The position numbers and the translations under genes were made by a program. The notes below the pieces were generated by a model. That model had not been told where the DNA came from and did not search any database. It saw only the letters and a list, made by a program, of their open reading frames with translations. From Iphione sp. A-MEVVRFRX5 (Eukaryota), in assembly GCA_976226885.1 (NCBI GenBank), contig OZ320320.1:14694001-14758000 (forward strand): a stretch of DNA of 64,000 nucleotides, read 5' to 3'. Shown piece by piece: positions 12,632-64,000 of the stretch. Position 1 is the stretch's first letter; every line of letters begins with the position of its first letter.

Positions 12632-13186
12632 ATGTGGGCGTCACCGCATCTCCCTTTCATAGAGGATGTCGCAGAAACTGCCAATCGGTGTGTGGCGTAC
12701 GCTGGTGCGCAGACACGCTCCACTCCAGCATGTAGAACGTGGCCACACGGGCAGGGACACGGGTTACTGCCGACGCCGCCAGTCTCGTACTTGTGCCTGA
12801 CAAAGACATTCGATCGACCTGGACGCCACCTGCATACTGGCTGGGTGCCTCTGTGGGTGTCTGACTCCCTACAAGATGTGGTGGCTTTGGCTCCTCATTC
12901 TGATGTGCATTTTGTAGCTGCATCAGTAAGGCAGAGAAGAGTGGAGGTGTCGGACGACGGGCAGGAGACGACAGCAGACGAAGGGGCGCGAGCTGAGGAT
13001 CTCCGCGTCACGGTTTCAGCAGTTGCAGGCAAGGGCACCCCCGATCCAACCGAGGGCCGGTCAGAAGAGAGACCAGGGACCATCATCCCTATCCCCAGAC
13101 GAAAGCGACAGCAGGTGTCGGCGCACGAGGCACTGATGAGCGAGGCGTTGGGGCGCAAGAGACGAAGGAGCGAGGCAATCCTATAA
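12632..13186 (+). CDS. Hypothetical 184-aa leader ORF of the provirus, with a basic C-terminus
   Basis: Longest ORF between PBS and gag, with PRRKR and RKRRR clusters. No recognised domain. Confidence 0.3.
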   Translation: MWASPHLPFIEDVAETANRCVAYAGAQTRSTPACRTWPHGQGHGLLPTPPVSYLCLTKTFDRPGRHLHTGWVPLWVSDSLQDVVALAPHSDVHFVAASVRQRRVEVSDDGQETTADEGARAEDLRVTVSAVAGKGTPDPTEGRSEERPGTIIPIPRRKRQQVSAHEALMSEALGRKRRRSEAIL

Positions 13187-13493
13187 GTGCATCGGGAAGG
13201 ACGGATGTCGCTGGCCGATGCGCAGATAGTGTGGCGGATGGGCGTAGCGTGAGGAAACCGGAGGACACCGCCACCCGAATTGCGGCCAGGGGCGCCGATC
13301 TTCGACTAAGAACAACGATTGAAAAGAGAGACTATGATGCCGAAAAACAGAATGGACTTGCGACATTGCCAAGGTGAGCGGGAGTTATTTCTGTCCACAA
13401 TTGCCAACCAAGGGTGTTGGGGAATGAGGGCGGACTAGGGCAACTATGAGGGATGGTTGCTGAATTGTAGCTGGGCTGGGACCAGGGAGAGGT

Positions 13494-13652
13494 ATGGAGC
13501 CGCTTGTGTTGGGATGTATGATTGCTATGTTGATGCTGTTGTGTATATTTGTGTTTGCTATGGTAGCTATGACCTGTCGCATGTTGGCCTATGACCCGAT
13601 GGTAGTGACGAGAGCATTCCAGGATGAATCGAGGCCCATAACGCTGGTGTGA
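13494..13652 (+). CDS. 52-aa small single-pass membrane protein ORF upstream of gag
   Basis: MEPLVLGCMIAMLMLLCIFVFAMVAMTCRMLAYDPMVVTRAFQDESRPITLV*. It has an uncharged hydrophobic stretch of about 25 aa, an ATG in good context (GGTATGG), and ends 16 nt before the gag ATG. Too short for the ORF track. Confidence 0.55.
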   Translation: MEPLVLGCMIAMLMLLCIFVFAMVAMTCRMLAYDPMVVTRAFQDESRPITLV

Positions 13653-13668
13653 GGGGTGGAGGATCAGA

Positions 13669-14778
13669 ATGAACCGTGATGTCCGACCCTCGCGCTTCCA
13701 TATTCCACAGTTTCAATCTCCAGTTACCCCTCAGGGCGGCCTCTCGGATGTTGAGTGGGATGAACATGCACAGCCGGGACCTTCGGGAGGCGCAGATCGG
13801 TTCCCTGAAGGGCCTGCCAGTGGGATGAATCATAACTCTGAGGATGCTGCTTTACAACAGTGCTTTCAGGGCATTGATCGAAATTTGACTCGGGTGACAG
13901 ATAATTTAACATTACAAGGGGCTAGACAGGGTGTGACAACTTTTGATGGGAAACCAAAACACTTCAAGACGTGGATGAAGTCCATCGAACATGCCGCTCG
14001 GAGCTATGTGAGCGCACCGGGGGTGGCTGTTCGGTTTAAGCAAAAATTGGCACAGCTAACGGCGGAAGGGTCGGTAGCCGATTTTATTATTTGGTACCTG
14101 GAGGAACAAGACGATAATTTGCATCAACAACAGATGGGTGTTGATGAGCCGGTGCTGACGCCAGAAGTGTGGGTAGAATTCAAGGCTAGGCTGTCCCATT
14201 GTTTTGGAGAAGTCATTGACCCCGTTCATGCAAAGGGACTTCTAAGAAAGTGCAAATGGCGATCTGATGAAGCCGTGTACGTATATTCCGAACGACTATT
14301 AGATCTGGCTAAAGATGCATTTGATGAAGACGAGTTGCAACAACCAGCAGTGCAACTACAGATAGTTGAGTTCTTTGTGGACGGGTTGAAAAACCCTAAG
14401 GTAGCTAGGAAGGTCATACGTGAACGACCGACGCAGTTCATGGATGCAGTTAAAACAGCAGGAGGGGAGACGGAGGTTCTCCGATGTTTTACTCTGCGAG
14501 GCAGGGATGAGCACACTCCTATGGAAGTTGATGTAGTTGATGCAGAGAAAAAGCGGGTAATGTCCGGAGCATGTTACTGTTGTGGAAAGAAAGGTCATTT
14601 TGCTAAAAACTGTTTTGCAGCCAAGGGTAGACAGACAAGGGCTCAAGGGGGTAATCCTTCGATGGCTGGGGCAGAGGCCTCGAGGGTGAAGAAGGTCCAG
14701 TGCTACAATTGCAAAAAAATTGGGCACTACTAGTCCCAGTGCCCATCTAATAAGAATAACTCCTCTCAGGGGAATTAG
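13669..14778 (+). pseudogene. gag: Gag (capsid-like domain plus two CCHC knuckles); TAG at 14731-14733 interrupts the second knuckle
   Basis: FDG...W, PMEVD, CYCCGKKGHFAKNC and CYNCKKIGHY*SQC motifs. The frame continues to the likely natural end QGN* at 14776-14778. Confidence 0.9.
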
Positions 14779-14792
14779 GTCTCTAGAACAGG

Positions 14793-17700
14793 ATGTTGGG
14801 AATGGAACGACCAACGATTAAAATTCAAGTGGGGCCCTTTGGGTATCGGGCTCTGTTGGATACTGGTGCAGATGTGTCGATTGTGCGAGAGGATATATAC
14901 CAACTGTTGAAACGAAAAGGGTTGGCCCGAGATGTGGTTGATGTACCCACCACGCTTAAGAGTGTGGGGGGCAGGGTGCTGGAGCAACGGGGTGTAGCTC
15001 GGATTGTGTTCCGAATACAACAAACCCACTTTGAGGTGGACTTTCGGGTGTTGACGAAGACCCGACACACCTTCATTCTTGGGTGGGATTGGTTGAGCCG
15101 ACACTCTGTACAGCTTATCCCGGGTCAGCAGAAGGTAAGATGTGGTCATTTAACGATACCCATGATAGGGGAAGAAAAACTGGGAACCTTGGTCAGGGCC
15201 GTTGACAGTTCTGTCATCCCTAGTGGTACGATGGTGCTGCAGGGGAGACGACTGTTAAGAGATCCCGATGATGAGGGGGCTCTGGCTATTGTCACGAGCT
15301 CCCAGGAGGGGCCTTTGTCTAGGGAGCCCGGAGTGATGATTGCAAATTGTTTAACTTCCCATTTGAACGGAGACATACCCATGGTTGTCGTGAATGCCAC
15401 TACTCGCACAATTGCCATTAGAACGGGCAATGTGATAGCCAGGTTGGAGGGAGTGAGAGACGAGGCGGTACAAGAGATCAGCCTTATACAGTCTAACCCA
15501 GGGCCGACAGAGAGAATGATTCCAGAGGCAGCTACTACATTAGAAGAGTTGTTAGCACTAAACGAGGATCTTTTCGCAGCGTCCGACATAGAGTTAGGAC
15601 GAACCCACCTCCTTACGATGGACATTGATACGGGGTTACACGCCCCTATAGCGCAGAAACCCTACCATACTCCGCTTTTGCGTCAAGGAGTAGTGGAAGA
15701 AAAGATTCAAGGCATGTTGGATGCAGGTATTATACAGCCAAGCCATAGTCCGTGGGCGTCACCGATTGTTTTAGTGGAAAAGAAGGATGGCAGCCAACGG
15801 TTCTGTGTGGATTATAGGAAGGTTAATGACGTGACCTCCAAGTTTAATTGGCCACTTCCACGCATTGATGACATTTTGGCGAGGTTGGGCGGTAGCACCT
15901 GCTTCTCTACGCTTGATTTGAGGAGTGGATATCATCAGGTGCCCATGAATGAAACCTCCCGGCCTAAAACGGCATTCGCTTGCCATGCAGGGTTATTTGA
16001 GTTTAACGTCATGCCTTTTGGGTTGTGTAATGCTCCAAGCGTGTTCTGCAAATTAATGGCAAAAGTATTAGATGGGATAAATGGCACGTTTACCACCGCA
16101 TATATAGATGATATTTTGATCTGGTCTCCAGACGAAGCTATGCACTTGTGCCACTTGCAAATGGTTTTTGACCGGTTAAGGCAGGCAGGCCTGAAACTGA
16201 AGTGCTCTAAGTATGAGTTTTTCACATCGCGAATTCGATACTTGGGACACGTTGTGACCCCAGAGGGCATGCAACCGGATATGGAGAAGGTGGAGAGTAT
16301 TGCCGAACTCGATCCACCTCGAGACGTGAAGGGGGTGCGGTCCTTTATAGGGATGGCTAGTTTCTATAGGCGATATGTGCCCACCTTCGCGTCGATTGCT
16401 GAACCCCTTATTGCCATGACCCGGAAACATGCGGAGTTCATGTGGACTGACGAGTGCCAGTCCGCCCGTGAACAGCTGAAGGATAGATTAACTCACCCCC
16501 CTGTTTTGGCGTTCCCGAGATTCGATCGAATCTTCATCTTGTATACTGATGCAAGCGACACTTGCATAGGGGCAGTTTGGGCCCAAGAGTTTGAAGACGG
16601 TGAACGTCCCATACAGTATATGTCACATCATTTGAGTGATACCCAACGAAGCTGGCCCGTGATTGAAAAGGAAGGGTATGCCATTGTGTCAGCCATTCGC
16701 AAGTTCCGCTCGTACTTATACGGACATAGGTTCATTGTCAGAACAGACCATAAACCTTTGCAATTTTTGTTTAAGTCTGAACAAAAGAACGCTAAAGTGC
16801 AGCGTTGGGCTATGCAACTGTCCGAGTACAACTGCAAAATTGAATATATCCCCGGGAAGCAGAATATTCCCGCTGATACCTTGAGTAGGCTCTGGTCCAA
16901 GCGCAATGAAGGCGTGTCCACGGAAGAATTGGCTCCAGTGGAAGGGACGGATACAGACGAGGAGTCAGGGGCCCTTAATGACTCTTCCTCTGTTCAGGGC
17001 CAGGAGAGTGAGCATCCGAATACTCCCAAGACCGACTTGGAGGGAGAGGACGTACCACTGATTCGCGAAACGGACGTGCGAGATGTAGATATGGCAAGGG
17101 CACAGGCGCAGGATCCTGAATGCCAGCGGTTAAAGGAAGGGCCAAAATTTGTGTGACTAGAAGGATTGTGGTACTATGTGAGCAAGCGTCCGGAAGCTTG
17201 CTTGCGAGTAGTGGTACCACAGGTGTTCCATAATACAGTATTGGATCAGCAACACGATCGAATGGGGCACATGGGGATTGATAAAATGTATGATCGCATA
17301 CGCGGACTGTATTACTGGAAAAATCTGTATGTAGACGTAGTGAAATATATCAGGCGATGTGTGGAATGTAACACGCGGAACCTGAGGAGGCAGCTGAGAC
17401 CGCTGCAAGAAATGGAGAGTATTGTCTTTCCGTTTCAGAAGGTCGCAGTTGACACATGTGGGCTGTATCCCGAGTCCAAGGCGGGGTATAAGTATGTGTT
17501 GTCCTTGATCGATGTCTATTCCGGATGGCCAGAGTTGTTCCCTATGAGGGATAAGAGGGCCATGATGGTCGCACAGATCCTAGCGACGGACATTATACCC
17601 AGACACAGATGTCCTGTGGTATTATTGTCAGACAATGGGACGGAATTTGTTAACGAAGTGGTCGCAGGACTCTGTAAGGAACTCGGCGTTGTGCGTATCA

Positions 17701-18308
17701 CCACTAGTCCGTACCATCCAGCGGCAAACGGTAAGGTCCAGCGCATGCACCGAGTGTGGAATGATATCGTGGCTAAGTTGACGTTGAGCGATATGGCGCA
17801 CTGGGAGGAGGTGGTTCCCTCAGCTTTGTTGGCCATGCGTATGAGTACGAATGAGTCAACTAAGTATACCCCTTTTTACTTGCTGCATGCAAGGGACCCA
17901 GTGTTGCCTTTGGACACATTGCTCCAACCCCGTATGCGGTATTACGGGGAGGAACACCATAAATTGGCGGTGCAACGACACCACCAGGCCATGACAGTGG
18001 TACGCCACAATGTCGCTAAGGTGCGGCAACGCATGAAGAAGTATCATGACAAACGTGCCACTGATGTGTCCTTTGAGGTGGGGGATCCTGTTTATATACA
18101 GAACCCCCTCCGGAAGCATAAGCTGGATATGAGATGGCGGCCATATCATCGTATTGTAGAGTGCTTGTCGCCGGTCAACTTTGTGGTCAAGGATCAGATA
18201 ATGGGGAAGTTAAGTAAGGTCCACAGTGATCGTCTTCGGTTAGCAGACCTGGACTGGAGGCTTCTGCAGAAACGCGAAGAGACCGCGCCGGCGTGTTGCT
18301 TTAGCTGA
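14793..18308 (+). pseudogene. pol: Pol: protease, RT, RNase H, integrase; in-frame TGA at 17154-17156
   Basis: PR LLDTGAD; RT PWASPIVLV, CVDYRKVN, YIDD; RH YTDAS, TDHKPL, ADTLSR; IN HDRMGH...CVEC, VDT, SDNGTEF. The third catalytic position reads Q (VQRMHR). Pol is in the -1 frame relative to gag, with a TAG at 14784-14786 just upstream of the ATG. Confidence 0.93.
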
Positions 18309-18327
18309 CAGTCCCTCTCCATCTGAC

Positions 18328-18948
18328 TTGGACTCAGCGGAGGAGGATGGGTCCGAAAGTGGTTCGGAGTTCTCTTCGGAAGATGAAATCCCATTAGCCC
18401 AGTTGTTTGGAAGAGAACGGCAGCATGACGTGCTGCAGGCTATCAACCCCAATCCCGAGGGGGAAGGGAGGGTTGAGGTGGAGGGCCCCACGGGAAGCGC
18501 AAGTCCACCGAGACAGGTGCATGGTCCTGTGGTTCATCATGAAAACCCTGACTCGGTGGCCGCGAGTCAAGGCGGAGGGTCAGGAGGGTTGCAAGACCAT
18601 GTGGAAGGACAACCCGAACCAGCTGTTCCGACCTTGACAGCTGTTGACCCGATGGATATCCTGCAGAGTACAGAGAGAGGGGAAGTAAGTAGTCAGGCTG
18701 TGGTAAAACCTAGGGTAGAGGGCCACGGGTTGGCATCCTACCGAACAAGATCAGTGGTCAAGCGGGAGCAAAGCATGATGGATGAGCTACCGCCAGTAGA
18801 AAAACGAGCTAGGTCTGACCAACAAGTGGTTGTTGTGGAGGAAGAAATTAGTCAAACAATGGATGCATTAGTTGATGTGTTAGCACAGTTAGATGAAGTG
18901 GCTGATGTATTGTGTGCTGCATTGAAAATAGAGAAGAGTGAACCATGA
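18328..18948 (+). CDS. Acidic low-complexity ORF, probably the frameshifted C-terminal tail of Pol
   Basis: Its frame is open back to about 18280, overlapping the end of IN. Restoring 2 nt in GAAGAGAC would fuse it to IN. It is in frame with env and separated from it by TGA TTA. Confidence 0.5.
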   Translation: MDSAEEDGSESGSEFSSEDEIPLAQLFGRERQHDVLQAINPNPEGEGRVEVEGPTGSASPPRQVHGPVVHHENPDSVAASQGGGSGGLQDHVEGQPEPAVPTLTAVDPMDILQSTERGEVSSQAVVKPRVEGHGLASYRTRSVVKREQSMMDELPPVEKRARSDQQVVVVEEEISQTMDALVDVLAQLDEVADVLCAALKIEKSEP

Positions 18949-18951
18949 TTA

Positions 18952-21132
18952 ATGCGGTGCTCTTCTTTGGTTCCAGGTGGCCTCTTGGTTCTGGTGTTGT
19001 TGTCGTGGGTTGGCCAATCGCAGGAAGGCTCCTTGGAAAATGTGATCTTCAAAAAGAGGTTGGATGTGAGGTCGGTATTGTCCACTTGGCGGATTGATCT
19101 GGTGTCGGAGTACGATCAGTACAAGAAAACCAGCTATGATTTGCAAGAACAACTGAACGAGACTCGACATGGGTTCTTAAAGACGGCGTATTTGGTTATG
19201 CCGCCACGTCACCGTTATGGGAACCGTATGCGTACGGAAACTGTCACGCGAACCCTGATGAGGTCACAGTTGGATCGAGCGGATGTATTGTTAGATCAAA
19301 TACATCTGAGCCTGCAGCGGATTAACAACATAGCGCGGCTCAGGGTACAGACTCGGCGTATTCCGTTTGCTACGGTTCATGACCCTGCTTTGAACCGTAC
19401 GAGGCATAGGAGGAAACGTGCAGTCATGGTGGCAGCTGTGGCCGGTCTTATCACCTTGGTCTCTGGCACCGCTACTGGTTTCGGTGTGGTGGGAAATGAG
19501 ATCCATGTTATCAAACACCGAGTAGGACAAATGGAGAGACAACAGCTGGAGATGTTGACTATCATGGGGGACATGATGACTATTATCAACCAAACTCGGA
19601 TGGATATCAGGCGCAACCGAGATGGTATTAATGACGTGATGCATAAGTTGCAATTGGTAGAAGGAGACTTATGGGAGGCTTTACAGCAAGCTAGCAATAT
19701 CACTGCTAAGGAGATACAATACATACACACCATCCTGAACGCCGAACAATATTTCTCACAGTTTGAGTATCAGGTGTCGGCTTGGGAGGGTGCAGTTGGC
19801 CAACTTGAGGCCCGAGTGGATCATCTGTTAGGGGGGCATTTGACACCGGAGGTCGTTCCGGCTACTGAATTAAAGGAGCTGCTCGCCAATGTGGCCCGGC
19901 AGTTGCCTCCAACACTCCAACTGCCATTCGATCCCGATGATGTATGGAGCTATTATAGTACTTTGGAGACAACTACCATCATCTTCGAGGGCCGTATTAT
20001 TACTTCCGTGAGTGTTTCGCTGATCGACCCTATGGCTTCTTATATGATGTATGAAGCTGTGAATATTCCTGTTCCCATACAGGCGGGTCAAGCCATACAA
20101 TTCCGACTAGAGTTTACGTATTTCGGAATAACTAAGGATAGGAGACGTTATGCTATCGCGACTACGGAGGAACTAGTTAGGTGTCAGTTACGAAAAGGTT
20201 CCTGTCTTGTCTCCTCCCCGGTGTATGAACTAAACATGCATTCTTATTGCGTTATGGCAATCTTCCGAGGGGAGGTGGAACGTGTTCGCGAACTGTGTCA
20301 GCGAATTGTGTTGGACAATGTATCTATGCCACAGGCACCATACTTGGATAGAGGCAATTGGGTAGTAACCACACCTGTGGACTTGACCTTACGGATTCAG
20401 TGTGTAAATGGTACTACATATCAGCGAAATGTACCTGTGCCTTTTGCGTTGGTAAACCTGCCGAACGGTTGTGGAGCCGTGGGGGACCAAATGTCCCTGC
20501 CGACTTACTATCAGCAGAGAAGCGAATATGAGGTAGAGCGAGACCCTGTTGTTCTACCCTCTGGATTGGTGGTGAACGAACTTATGGTTTGGACCCCAAA
20601 TCTGCCCGAGGCTTCCAATCACACGGCGAACTTGCATCCGCTTCTGGCGTTGTTGGAATCAGACATGGCAGACATCATGCAACATATCAATAACTTACAT
20701 GACTGAGTGGCTGACAATCCCTTGTTGCCGGGTACGTCAGTGACCTCTACTATCATCTGGGCATTAGGAGGACTGAGTTCGGCGTTGACTTTGGGAATGT
20801 GCTGTTATTGCTGCTTGTGTAAGAAGGGAAGATGGAGGCGCTTAGCTCAGCAAGCACCTATGGGGCCGCGGGGGTCGGGAAACGGGTCGGCTCCCATTAC
20901 AATTAATTTGGGGGAAACCAGTTCTAAAGATAGCCCTGAACGAGTGCGACCCACTAACGCTGCCCTTACGTATGCTATTCCACCCCTGCCTGAGCCTGAA
21001 AGAGTAGTGCCTGAGTGTGCTGTCCGTTTGTCCAATGGACCGTCCCAACAGCTTGAAGTTTTCAGACCAGAGGGCAATGTGGGGGCGCATGCAACGGCCC
21101 CCAGGAAGTATCCCTTCTCTGTATTTCAATAG
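18952..21132 (+). pseudogene. env: Envelope, class I fusion glycoprotein (baculovirus F / errantivirus Env-like); in-frame TGA at 20704-20706 before the TM anchor
   Basis: Signal-like N-terminus, furin site RRKR (19408-19419), hydrophobic fusion peptide AVMVAAVAGLITLVSGTATGFGVVG, heptad-rich region, Cys-rich block and 7 ectodomain N-glycosylation sequons. The same frame continues (20707-21132) into a TM segment IIWALGGLSSALTLGMCCYCCLC followed by KKGRWRR. About 726 codons in total. Confidence 0.88.
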
Positions 21133-21946
21133 ATGGGTTGAGGTACATGGTTGGCGGGTGGAGAGAAGATCTCCCGCTCAAGATGTGCTGTTGTTATGGT
21201 ATTGTCGACGGGAGTTTCAGACCAGTGGGTCTTTTGCTCAAAATGTGTTGTTGTTGCTGTTATTCTTAAAAGAATGATACAGTATCAAAAAAAAAAATAT
21301 ATATATATACATTGAGTGTATTCAACGAATGTTGTGTCATGTAATGTGTGTGTGTAACTACATTTAACTGTTCAATGAAGGTGTGATAGTCCAAGGACCA
21401 ACGGTAATGGATTGTAAGCGATTGTGTTACATATTGCCTGCTCGGAGGATATGATCGTTCAAGAGGTGTAAAGGGAAGTTAGCAACGGGAAGGCGCATGA
21501 CCATCATGGAAGATCGAGAGGACAGGGCTCCCAGTTGTACATATCGTTTTGGAGCACCCTCCTCTTGGCGCTCTATAGGGTATGGTCTGAGCCTTAGGGC
21601 CGCCATTCTTTTACTCTTTCCTAGGAAACCAAGATAAACTTCCAAAAGTGGGCCAGACACAAGTCTGTTACCCCTACCTGTGGAAGGTCTCTCATGGTCA
21701 GGTAGCGAGTCTGAGCTCGAATGTCCTTAGCTCTTGGTTTCCATTCTTGGTCAACTGACCCTCTATCTCTTTCCTTTCTTTTCCTTGGCCGGTTGTGGAA
21801 GTGATCGCATCCCTCAAAATGAACCACCTCTGTTTAGTATGCCAGTTGGGCAGAGGGCGGTTGGTCTGTTTGGTGAATGACCTCTCTTGAATGACCTCTC
21901 ATGAATGGCCTTCTCTCAAAGGCCTTGTAATGAGAATATTACTCTC

Positions 21947-21960
21947 AAGGAGGGGAGGGA
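21947..21960 (+). promoter_or_regulatory. Polypurine tract
   Basis: AAGGAGGGGAGGGA directly abuts the 3' LTR. Confidence 0.9.
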
Positions 21961-22438
21961 TGTGACACAGTACGGTTATAAGTTAAGAACATATGCATGT
22001 GAAAAGGGATGTACTGTGTCTATATAGTGTACAGTTATACGCAGTAAAGAAGGGCCTTTTACTGGTGACGCAGTTTAAAATTTTTCGCTTGGCGTACGTG
22101 ATGCCTAAAGTGTAAACAGGTTGATCCTTATCTTGTTAACGAAGTGGCTATTACAATTAACAAGGTATTATCAGCAATGAGCACGTGATACTGTAACCAG
22201 TTGGAGTCGACACAATGGTTGATCAATCGTGTGCTGTCTAACGAGACATCCGCTGTTGATAACACAGCAAGTTTCGCATATTTTCGTTAGCGTGTTTACG
22301 TCACTAAGTTGTATATAAGGATTGACGTGCGCGTCCCTAGTTGGGATCCGCCTGAGACGACCGTGTAACCTGTGTTGCTGCGTTTCTGCAATAAAGGCCG
22401 GACGATTGAAGAACCTGCTTGTGGTGTCTTTTGTTACA
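21961..22438 (+). repeat. 3' LTR
   Basis: 478-bp copy of 12093-12570, followed by the TSD ACAT. Confidence 0.97.
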
Positions 22439-62285: not shown

Positions 62286-64000
62286 TGCCCACTGCCAATG
62301 GCGCACCCTGTATGGGAATTAGTGATCCCGACACCCACATTATACCAGAACTCATTGACATAGTTACCCAACCCCAAGATTATGAAGCTCAATTGCCTAG
62401 GGGGGCCCCCACCACGCATGCCTCACTCATATACGCACATGTGTACAATTGGCCTAAGATCCTTTCCTGTAACGATCCACAGCTGATTAAGGTGTATGAA
62501 GCGGTCAAAGACACAGGTCTGCCTAATTCACTTGAATGTAAAATACCACTAACTTCTTCATTAAATTTCAGGTTGTGGGACATAGTCATCGGACAAGGTG
62601 GTGAGCTTGAAAAAATATTGTCAGAAGGTATAAGATATGGTTTTCAGCTGGGATATACACGCCAGCACGTCCCCGACACCCAAATAAACAACTATCCCTC
62701 AGCCACCGCCCACATGCAGAGCGTTGTCGACTATGTCAACGAAGAAAGGTTATGTAATGCGATTTCAACACCCACACATACACGCCCATTCACACATTGC
62801 GCAGTGAGCCCATTGCTCACTAGACCGAAACAAAACACATCAAAGAGACGAATAGTAGTTGACCTAAGCGCTACAGGGGTGAACACAGGCATACCACAAC
62901 ATTACCTGTTTGATTACAACTATACAATGTCGTTGCCAACCCCTCTTGACCTAGTGACCAGTCTTGTAGGATATCCAGACACCTCACATATAGCTACAGT
63001 GGACATCAGCAGGGCATACCGAAATTTTCGAGTAGATCCTCTCGACTGGCCACTGCTGGTGTTCTCGGTAGACAACGAATTTTACTTCGATGTATCATTA
63101 CCATTTGGGACTAGGCTCTCCTCGTACTACCTGCAAATGATGTCTGAAAAAATAGTCGCACATGTGCTCAGCGAATGCACTGGGGTAAACATTAAAGCCT
63201 ATCTTGATGATTATGTAATTGTTGGTGTCACTAAAGAGGCGACAGCAATCGCGTATGAACACCTGAAAACAACATTGTATGATCTAGGACTCGAGGTAGC
63301 CCAGCATAAGTGTACCCCACCAGCACGAAAAGCTACTTGGCTAGGCGTAGAGGTAGATGTGCAAAACAAAACACTGTCAATCACCAAAGAAAAAAAAGAT
63401 AGAGCATACAACTCTGCTTCAGAAATACTAAAAGAAGACAACTTATCGATTAAGAGAGTACAACGCTTTGTCGGTTTCATAAATTTTGTCTCTACATGCT
63501 TAGCCCCAGCTAGACTTTTCATCTGTGAGTTGCTGTTTCAGTACCGGGAGGCAATTAGGACTGATAATAGGAATGTAATTGTGACAACTCGCATACGAGA
63601 TGACATGTTATGGTTTGTGAAGTACATGCCTATGTATAATGGTATATCACCTTTCCAGGAGCATGTAATAACGGATGAAATTGTGGTAGATGCATGTTTA
63701 CAAGGCATGGGCGCATACACGAAAAAACACCTATACGCCATAAAAAACGACACACACCAGGGATTGAGTATAGCAAAGCTTGAAGCCCTTAATCTTGCAC
63801 TTGCTGTCGACATGTTTGGTAAACACTATAGCAAAGGTGCAGTATTAGAGGTTAAGTGTGACAACATGGCAACAATATGTGCAATGACGAACATGAGAAT
63901 CAGGGACAATGATTTGTCAGCGGTAGTAAGGTTCTGCTGGTACACTGCAATGAAGTATGGTATAATGTTAAAATTCACGCATGTACCAGGTGAGCGATTA
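62285..64000 (+). CDS. RT / RNase H ORF, open to the window end (absent from the ORF track)
   Basis: Manual translation from ATG 62285 shows no stop. Motifs TGLPN, RRIVVDLS, VDISRAYR, LPFG, YLDDY, WLG; RH motifs VDACL, IAKLEALN, CDN. Confidence 0.88.
   Translation, partial: MPTANGAPCMGISDPDTHIIPELIDIVTQPQDYEAQLPRGAPTTHASLIYAHVYNWPKILSCNDPQLIKVYEAVKDTGLPNSLECKIPLTSSLNFRLWDIVIGQGGELEKILSEGIRYGFQLGYTRQHVPDTQINNYPSATAHMQSVVDYVNEERLCNAISTPTHTRPFTHCAVSPLLTRPKQNTSKRRIVVDLSATGVNTGIPQHYLFDYNYTMSLPTPLDLVTSLVGYPDTSHIATVDISRAYRNFRVDPLDWPLLVFSVDNEFYFDVSLPFGTRLSSYYLQMMSEKIVAHVLSECTGVNIKAYLDDYVIVGVTKEATAIAYEHLKTTLYDLGLEVAQHKCTPPARKATWLGVEVDVQNKTLSITKEKKDRAYNSASEILKEDNLSIKRVQRFVGFINFVSTCLAPARLFICELLFQYREAIRTDNRNVIVTTRIRDDMLWFVKYMPMYNGISPFQEHVITDEIVVDACLQGMGAYTKKHLYAIKNDTHQGLSIAKLEALNLALAVDMFGKHYSKGAVLEVKCDNMATICAMTNMRIRDNDLSAVVRFCWYTAMKYGIMLKFTHVPGERL

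Follow-up and report, generated by a model that had tools for sequence, protein, structure and literature searches.

The closest described counterpart of the locus reported here is sORF2 of the Drosophila MDG1-group Ty3/gypsy elements (412, mdg1, Stalker), which, in the account of PMC11952523, is a short ORF with a single transmembrane (TM) segment, located directly upstream of gag on the same strand and read from unspliced RNA. According to that article, its length is 63-107 aa and its ectodomain comprises close to 30 residues; it bears a polybasic patch and, in many cases, a myristoylation motif. The current view is that Gypsy elements exit cells through either Env or sORF2 and do not use both (PMC13486581); the survey of 249 drosophilids in that article reports no case of sORF2 and ENV together. 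The other relevant group is the env-carrying 'ancient errantiviruses' of molluscs, annelids and barnacles (Chary and Hayashi, PMC13524379), which are described as nearly all F-type and have the same His primer match as the element analysed here. The main text of PMC13524379 contains none of the terms 'sORF', 'small ORF' and 'upstream of gag', and our literature searches, which mainly covered work outside subscription journals, turned up no description of a TM ORF ahead of gag in a gypsy element that also has env.

We analysed a 64,000-nt stretch of Iphione sp. DNA (the window) that contains a 52-codon TM ORF, hereafter the micro-ORF, directly before gag in an element with env. Both its position and this kind of element are already known; it is their combination that we did not find in the literature. 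The initial annotation of the locus considered such a co-occurrence unusual, and the drosophilid survey bears this out. In our opinion, the micro-ORF may be a real, lineage-specific gene by which an env-F 'ancient errantivirus' makes a membrane adaptor for trafficking or assembly; this reading, drawn by analogy, is tentative and we put it close to an even call. That the env-F errantivirus lineage acquired, either de novo or through capture, another membrane protein alongside Env, as a Vpu- or E-like trafficking or fusion accessory, is plausible, though on balance we would not lean towards it. If such a protein is functional beside a full env, invertebrate errantiviruses evolve accessory genes like complex retroviruses, and screens filtered for myristoylation miss a class of accessory membrane proteins. 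A pre-gag TM microprotein together with env would also be a combination without precedent for sORF2 in the drosophilid survey, as reported in PMC13486581.

The host element and its leader

The micro-ORF belongs to a 10.3-kb env-F Ty3/gypsy element of the order LTR-gag-pol(PR-RT-RH-IN)-env, with the following features (window coordinates).

12093..12570, + strand: 5' LTR, 478 nt, TG...CA, preceded by the target-site copy ACAT
12586..12603, + strand: primer-binding site of tRNA-His type, set 15 nt beyond the LTR
12632..13186, + strand: leader ORF, possibly coding, 184 aa, opening at the first AUG past the primer site
13334..13373, + strand: predicted first exon of env with a basic n-region; 13 codons up to the donor AAG/GTGAGC
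13374..13668, + strand: donor-to-gag interval, 295 nt, containing the micro-ORF
13494..13652, + strand: micro-ORF, 52 aa and stop; 3-residue N-terminus, hydrophobic segment 4-27, Cys28, 25-residue tail
13669..14778, + strand: gag, two CCHC knuckles, premature stop at 14731-14733
14787..18948, + strand: pol (PR-RT-RH-IN), premature stop at 17154-17156, tail frameshift near 18250-18310
18952..21132, + strand: F-type env with a Baculo_F match (E 2.5e-5); acceptor at 18976; a premature stop (20704-20706) ahead of the TM anchor
21947..21960, + strand: polypurine tract
21961..22438, + strand: 3' LTR, 478 nt, followed by the target-site copy ACAT

Gag-pol-env order, an F-type env and a His_GUG primer site offset from the LTR are shared with the env-F 'ancient errantiviruses' as described in PMC13524379, and the last-12-nt tRNA match is the same as in the His_GUG rows of supplement 1 of that article. 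The env assignment stands at 23.5 bits against Baculo_F, just short of the curated cut-off of 24.1; this env also matches the env of three loci of the clade (L013, L014, L019). The named Pol relatives, at 52-55%, are from Patella, Haliotis and Solemya. Given the primer match, the type of env and these Pol relatives, we infer that the element is a new member of the group defined in PMC13524379 and that its source is probably a mollusc or an annelid. It is young, and its LTRs, flanked by the 4-nt target-site copies, differ at 10 of 478 nt. The genes other than the micro-ORF had been described as decayed, which is true insofar as they carry three premature stops and one frameshift, but with LTRs so similar the decay is only mild.

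Several minor observations concern the element and its surroundings. About 52 aa rich in Pro and Gly (13669-13824) extend Gag at its N-terminus, ahead of the region common to its relatives. The 184-aa leader ORF (12632-13186, + strand) ends in basic clusters resembling a nuclear signal and is in the same frame as the env first exon; it has no Pfam match, no Atlas hit and a low recognition score. A longer basic ORF further upstream is also present in MDG1 elements, as sORF1, and the leader ORF is possibly its counterpart, although the likeness is one of resemblance only. A second copy of the element was not found within the 64-kb window, which contains further, distant reverse-transcriptase remnants at 28801-30153 and 62915-63358.

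In the leader the best splice donor, with 8 of 9 consensus matches, would start an intron at 13374; near env, the best acceptor is at 18976 and has 11 of 13 pyrimidines. Counted from the AUG at 13334, the reading frame at the donor is in phase 1, as is that of env at the acceptor, and the predicted spliced Env would receive a basic 13-residue start from exon 1 and a hydrophobic core from exon 2. Because the phases agree and the exons give such a start and core, we predict that Env has its own signal peptide and that the micro-ORF is intronic, as had been proposed; a comparable env splicing design is described for ZAM and Beagle in PMC12992720. It is then likely that the micro-ORF would be made from genomic-length RNA.

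How ribosomes would arrive there is less straightforward. Between the probable start region and 13494 there are 15 AUGs against 15.7 expected, i.e. they are not depleted, so plain scanning would hardly reach the micro-ORF, and gag likewise is not easily reached. Translation of either would need internal entry, shunting, re-initiation or an extra splice from the donor at 12628, a further donor that makes other spliced RNAs possible. No AG between 13380 and 13499 is preceded by more than 7 pyrimidines in 13. A look-up of sequencing runs for 12571-14800 returned none, which bears neither way on expression.

The last 175 nt before gag contain 11 AUGs against 3.7 expected, eight of them in the micro-ORF frame, and this excess fits Met-rich membrane coding better than a neutral leader. 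All eight in-frame AUGs share a single stop, which precedes the gag AUG (13669) by 16 nt, and this spacing and the concentration of the excess in one frame would also suit a regulatory upstream ORF, in which translation, and not the product, tunes Gag output via coupled re-initiation. We regard this as quite improbable: re-initiation is usually poor after ORFs as long as 52 aa, and the 24-residue apolar segment would be left unexplained.

The least probable of the readings considered here is that the micro-ORF is not a separate gene, but either an alternative Env signal/anchor exon or the leading part of a TM-Gag fusion that resembles glyco-Gag. MLV glyco-Gag does place a membrane-anchoring sequence in the leader ahead of gag; however, it is in frame with Gag, starts at a CUG and is type II, whereas the micro-ORF is separate and out of frame. 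The two open frames, micro-ORF and gag, overlap by only about 10 nt, and a mildly hydrophobic N-terminus was seen in 1 of 150 Gag relatives (best 19-residue Kyte-Doolittle window, KD19, of 1.82). As for an Env exon, Env already has an in-phase upstream first exon (phase 1 on both sides), and the donor-like sites within the micro-ORF have only 6 of 9 matches and are in phase 0.

The predicted product

The initial annotation pointed to a clean single-TM ORF with a good start context, and we agree with this description. The AUG has G at -3 and at +4, and the best KD19 window, starting at residue 4, scores 2.94; hydrophobicity was judged by KD19. A single-sequence AlphaFold model has a helix over residues 2-33 (pLDDT 90-98 over residues 1-30) and a second, weak helix at 35-45 (mean pLDDT 79.8, pTM 0.49), and the KD19 value and the first helix together predict a single TM domain. 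Segment 4-27 is devoid of charged, amide, His, Trp and Ser residues.

The tail contains a YxxPhi-like motif at Y33-M36, with Tyr33 six residues past the hydrophobic segment, and ends in T-x-V; we read the former as a putative Tyr-based sorting motif and the latter as a putative class I PDZ-type motif. Both were sought post hoc, and among 20000 shuffled tails 33% have YxxPhi, 2.9% the T-x-V end and 1.0% both.

Our preferred reading, of a membrane adaptor, can be spelled out as follows. An accessory gene would have been acquired in the interval that separates the env splice donor from gag, and would be read from unspliced (gag-type) RNA via a non-scanning route. The product would insert as a single-pass protein with an acidic 3-residue N-terminus, a long apolar helix and Arg29 after it; with Glu2 before the helix and Arg29 behind, the orientation is presumably N-out/C-in, by the usual topology rule. 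The short cytosolic tail, with a Tyr-based sorting motif and a C-terminal PDZ-type motif, would make it a trafficking adaptor, which may determine the membrane site reached by capsids and Env, or divert a host membrane protein. The role of fusogen would be left to Env, and the product would act more like other small accessory membrane proteins of viruses, such as coronavirus E or HIV-1 Vpu, the latter a presumed likeness. Palmitoylation at Cys28 would be possible, as at the Cys beside the coronavirus E helix in the description of PMC6537279. Coronavirus E, as described there, shares with the micro-ORF product a very short N-terminus, one helix, an adjoining Cys and a C-terminal PDZ-type motif. 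In contrast to E and Vpu, the product has no polar pore face and is about 25 residues shorter, and it has no significant sequence match to them. The proposed mechanism is drawn from analogy only.

The size and the single helix would also suit a viroporin that oligomerises into an ion channel, and one Atlas lead pointed to the coronavirus E family with a score (0.80) that shuffled proteins attain in one case out of three. Segment 4-27 offers no polar pore-lining residues, and we consider a channel very improbable. A four-copy complex prediction for the peptide scored 0.03, which speaks neither for nor against oligomers.

Reoviral FAST proteins are likewise small, have a single TM segment and are N-out/C-in, as predicted here, but the product is without the ectodomain, the N-terminal acylation motif and the polybasic region that are FAST features in the account of PMC11952523. 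That it is not a classical FAST protein had been noted from the beginning, and indeed residue 2 is Glu, so there is no Gly2 and no MGxxxS/T myristoylation motif, and the only basic residues of the tail are R29, R40 and R47, against three acidic ones, with no juxtamembrane polybasic region. The comparison with sORF2 is similar: the product has 52 aa, a 3-residue ectodomain, no myristoylation motif and no polybasic patch, and its host carries env and belongs to another lineage, with no sequence similarity shown. Since it departs from them in length, ectodomain, myristoylation and polybasic features, we do not class the micro-ORF as sORF2 or FAST, although it may act at the same step.

One could still suppose a non-canonical sORF2/FAST-like cell-cell fusogen, palmitoylated instead of myristoylated, that provides a second, Env-independent route between cells. 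The position and the predicted topology are those of MDG1 sORF2, Cys28 adjoins the helix, and the sORF2 screen excluded palmitoylated variants, as its authors state (PMC11952523). Yet we find a fusogen improbable. The product is shorter than the 63-107 aa of sORF2 and has 3 ectodomain residues where sORF2 has about 30, with neither the myristoyl Gly nor the polybasic patch; the amphipathic moment of its tail (0.73) is marginal, being reached by 290 of 5000 shuffles; and the element has its own env, while sORF2 and ENV do not occur together in the drosophilids covered by PMC13486581.

Coding sequence or chance frame

The main alternative to an adaptor gene is a chance frame without a functional protein product: non-coding sequence rich in G and T would have expanded downstream of the env donor, where it may serve RNA splicing or packaging, and would read as hydrophobic codons by accident. 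We consider this a serious possibility, even if a rather doubtful one. No other 90 nt of the element are as TG-rich as the micro-ORF region (0.73-0.74). The leader of XMRV offers a precedent in ORFs of 53 and 58 aa without detectable function, as reported in PMC3423011. The 15 AUGs upstream of the micro-ORF also suit a frame that is not translated. A TG-rich tract in the 3' UTR opens a 40-aa frame as well; this Cys-run ORF (21147-21269, + strand) derives from a duplicated TG-rich unit and is probably non-coding. If the micro-ORF is likewise a chance frame, it serves as a calibration case, demonstrating that G/T-biased retroelement leaders can yield convincing TM micro-ORFs.

Against chance stands first of all the internal structure of the sequence. 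T occupies codon position 2 in 27 of the 52 codons, which 23 of 20000 shuffles match; the other two frames contain stops, and the micro-ORF frame stays open in only 5.5% of shuffles. There are no adjacent identical codons (2.0 expected) and 29 distinct codons, unlike the 3' UTR tract, where 3 adjacent identical codons occur in 28. None of the three tandem arrays of the element overlaps the micro-ORF, and together with the codon counts this rules out a decayed triplet repeat. The env signal segment is nearly as TG-rich (0.69). For an RNA element, the region has no unusual fold (z -0.30) and no Rfam match.

The hydrophobicity itself is rare. Among the 216 ORFs of 40-120 aa in the window, 11 reach a KD19 of 2.0 and the micro-ORF, the most hydrophobic, alone reaches 2.9. 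In dinucleotide shuffles an ORF of at least 50 aa with a KD19 of at least 2.9 appeared in 0 of 2000 for the 1083-nt leader, and the same threshold was reached in 0 of 2000 both for the donor-to-gag interval and for the micro-ORF with its flanks; at 2.0 the respective counts were 6, 10 and 5 of 2000. Block shuffles, which retain local composition, are less kind: with blocks of 30, 60 and 90 nt, ORFs of at least 50 aa reached 2.9 in 12, 4 and 2 of 1000, and reached 2.0 in 181, 110 and 82 of 1000, while ORFs of 30 aa reached 2.0 in 390, 213 and 156 of 1000. The threshold of 2.9 was set post hoc, with the micro-ORF already known, and the looser one is often reached. It follows that the suspicion of a mere TG-rich non-coding tract, raised with the initial annotation, is largely refuted by the phase-locked T and the lack of repeats, yet retains the 8-18% of block shuffles that arrive at 2.0. 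Based on the phase-locked T, the absence of repeat structure and the rarity of such hydrophobicity in shuffles, the micro-ORF looks coded.

We disagree with the suggestion that its intactness is a sign of function. The element has 4 breaks (3 premature stops and 1 frameshift) in 7450 coding nt, and a neutral frame of 159 nt would survive in it with a probability of 0.918; an intact micro-ORF is therefore no evidence of function, and we reject the argument.

Relatives and distribution

At E 0.001, an exhaustive search with Gag returned 743 relatives; identity is about 30-45% for the best of them. The clade sample consists of the DNA of 11 loci, representing about 10 independent elements (L016 is close to L020); L016 has no visible primer site, and L023 and L024 duplicate L021 and L022. 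Gag of the 9 tested clade loci is 26-38% identical to that of the window, and env is present in 3 of these 9 (L013, L014, L019). The remaining L025-L061 (37 loci) are distant, two of them without a gag match and many with an ill-defined gag start, and the 11-locus count leaves them out.

The initial annotation proposed to look for a TM ORF conserved in position, and at the clade level this fails: in the stretch from primer site to gag, 0 of the 11 distant loci has an AUG ORF of at least 25 aa with a KD19 of at least 1.8; the one that L018 has is upstream of its primer site. Hence the micro-ORF is not ancestral to the clade. An RT-RNase H tree of 44 sequences, limited to unnamed relatives and proteins with mollusc names, places the window beside P0166, P0167, P0169, P0174 and P0177 (FastTree support 0.99), and the 6 of 11 clade loci with enough RT fall in sister groups; the comparison of the 11 loci applies to the clade level.

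What the relatives do have is a strong donor shortly before gag, 24-53 nt from its AUG in 8 of the 11 loci (L012, L013, L014, L017, L018, L019, L021, L022), compared with 295 nt in the window. Given this difference, the micro-ORF would occupy a lineage-specific expansion of about 250 nt. A source of the interval 13374-13668 was not found elsewhere in the window or in the 61 loci.

Homologues of the micro-ORF were sought widely. A word-seeded search of 5.8 billion proteins returned none, a weak blank, since the same tool missed all of the Gag relatives that the exhaustive search recovered. There was no family in Pfam, no match in PDB, no tblastn hit across the 61 loci, only E 0.16 and 0.28 in PHROGs, and in Atlas all hits were under 0.9. 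Viral contigs were scanned with Pol, with two alignments of Gag and with the pattern of the primer site, and no clade member came up; a Pol alignment found 9 loci at about 30% identity.

The lack of a homologue and of a counterpart in the clade loci is what a chance frame would produce, and against an accessory gene we count both of these, together with the uninformative survival, the upstream AUGs and the loose threshold that is often reached. For an accessory gene we count, by analogy, the position directly before gag, which is that of MDG1 sORF2 as described in PMC11952523.

Hydrophobic ORFs of 30-120 aa with a KD19 of 2.08-2.47 number 4 in the 11 clade loci, which is the background level. 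Various short ORFs were seen in passing: in L018 (1156, + strand) a 38-aa hydrophobic one that ends in basic residues and lies ahead of the primer site, a 34-aa hydrophobic one between pol and env in L013 (6158, + strand), and Thr-rich repeat ORFs of 126 and 58 aa in the leader of L019 (5429-6003). In the leaders of L016 and L020 a duplicated gag start gives rise to short hydrophobic upstream peptides of 13-17 aa. Outside the 11-locus count, L052 (36 aa) and L060 (63 aa) have hydrophobic ORFs far upstream of gag. Finally, the genome G002, the source of L024-L052, is a bacterial genome bin with 79 Gag-profile matches, that is, animal retrotransposon DNA in a prokaryote collection.
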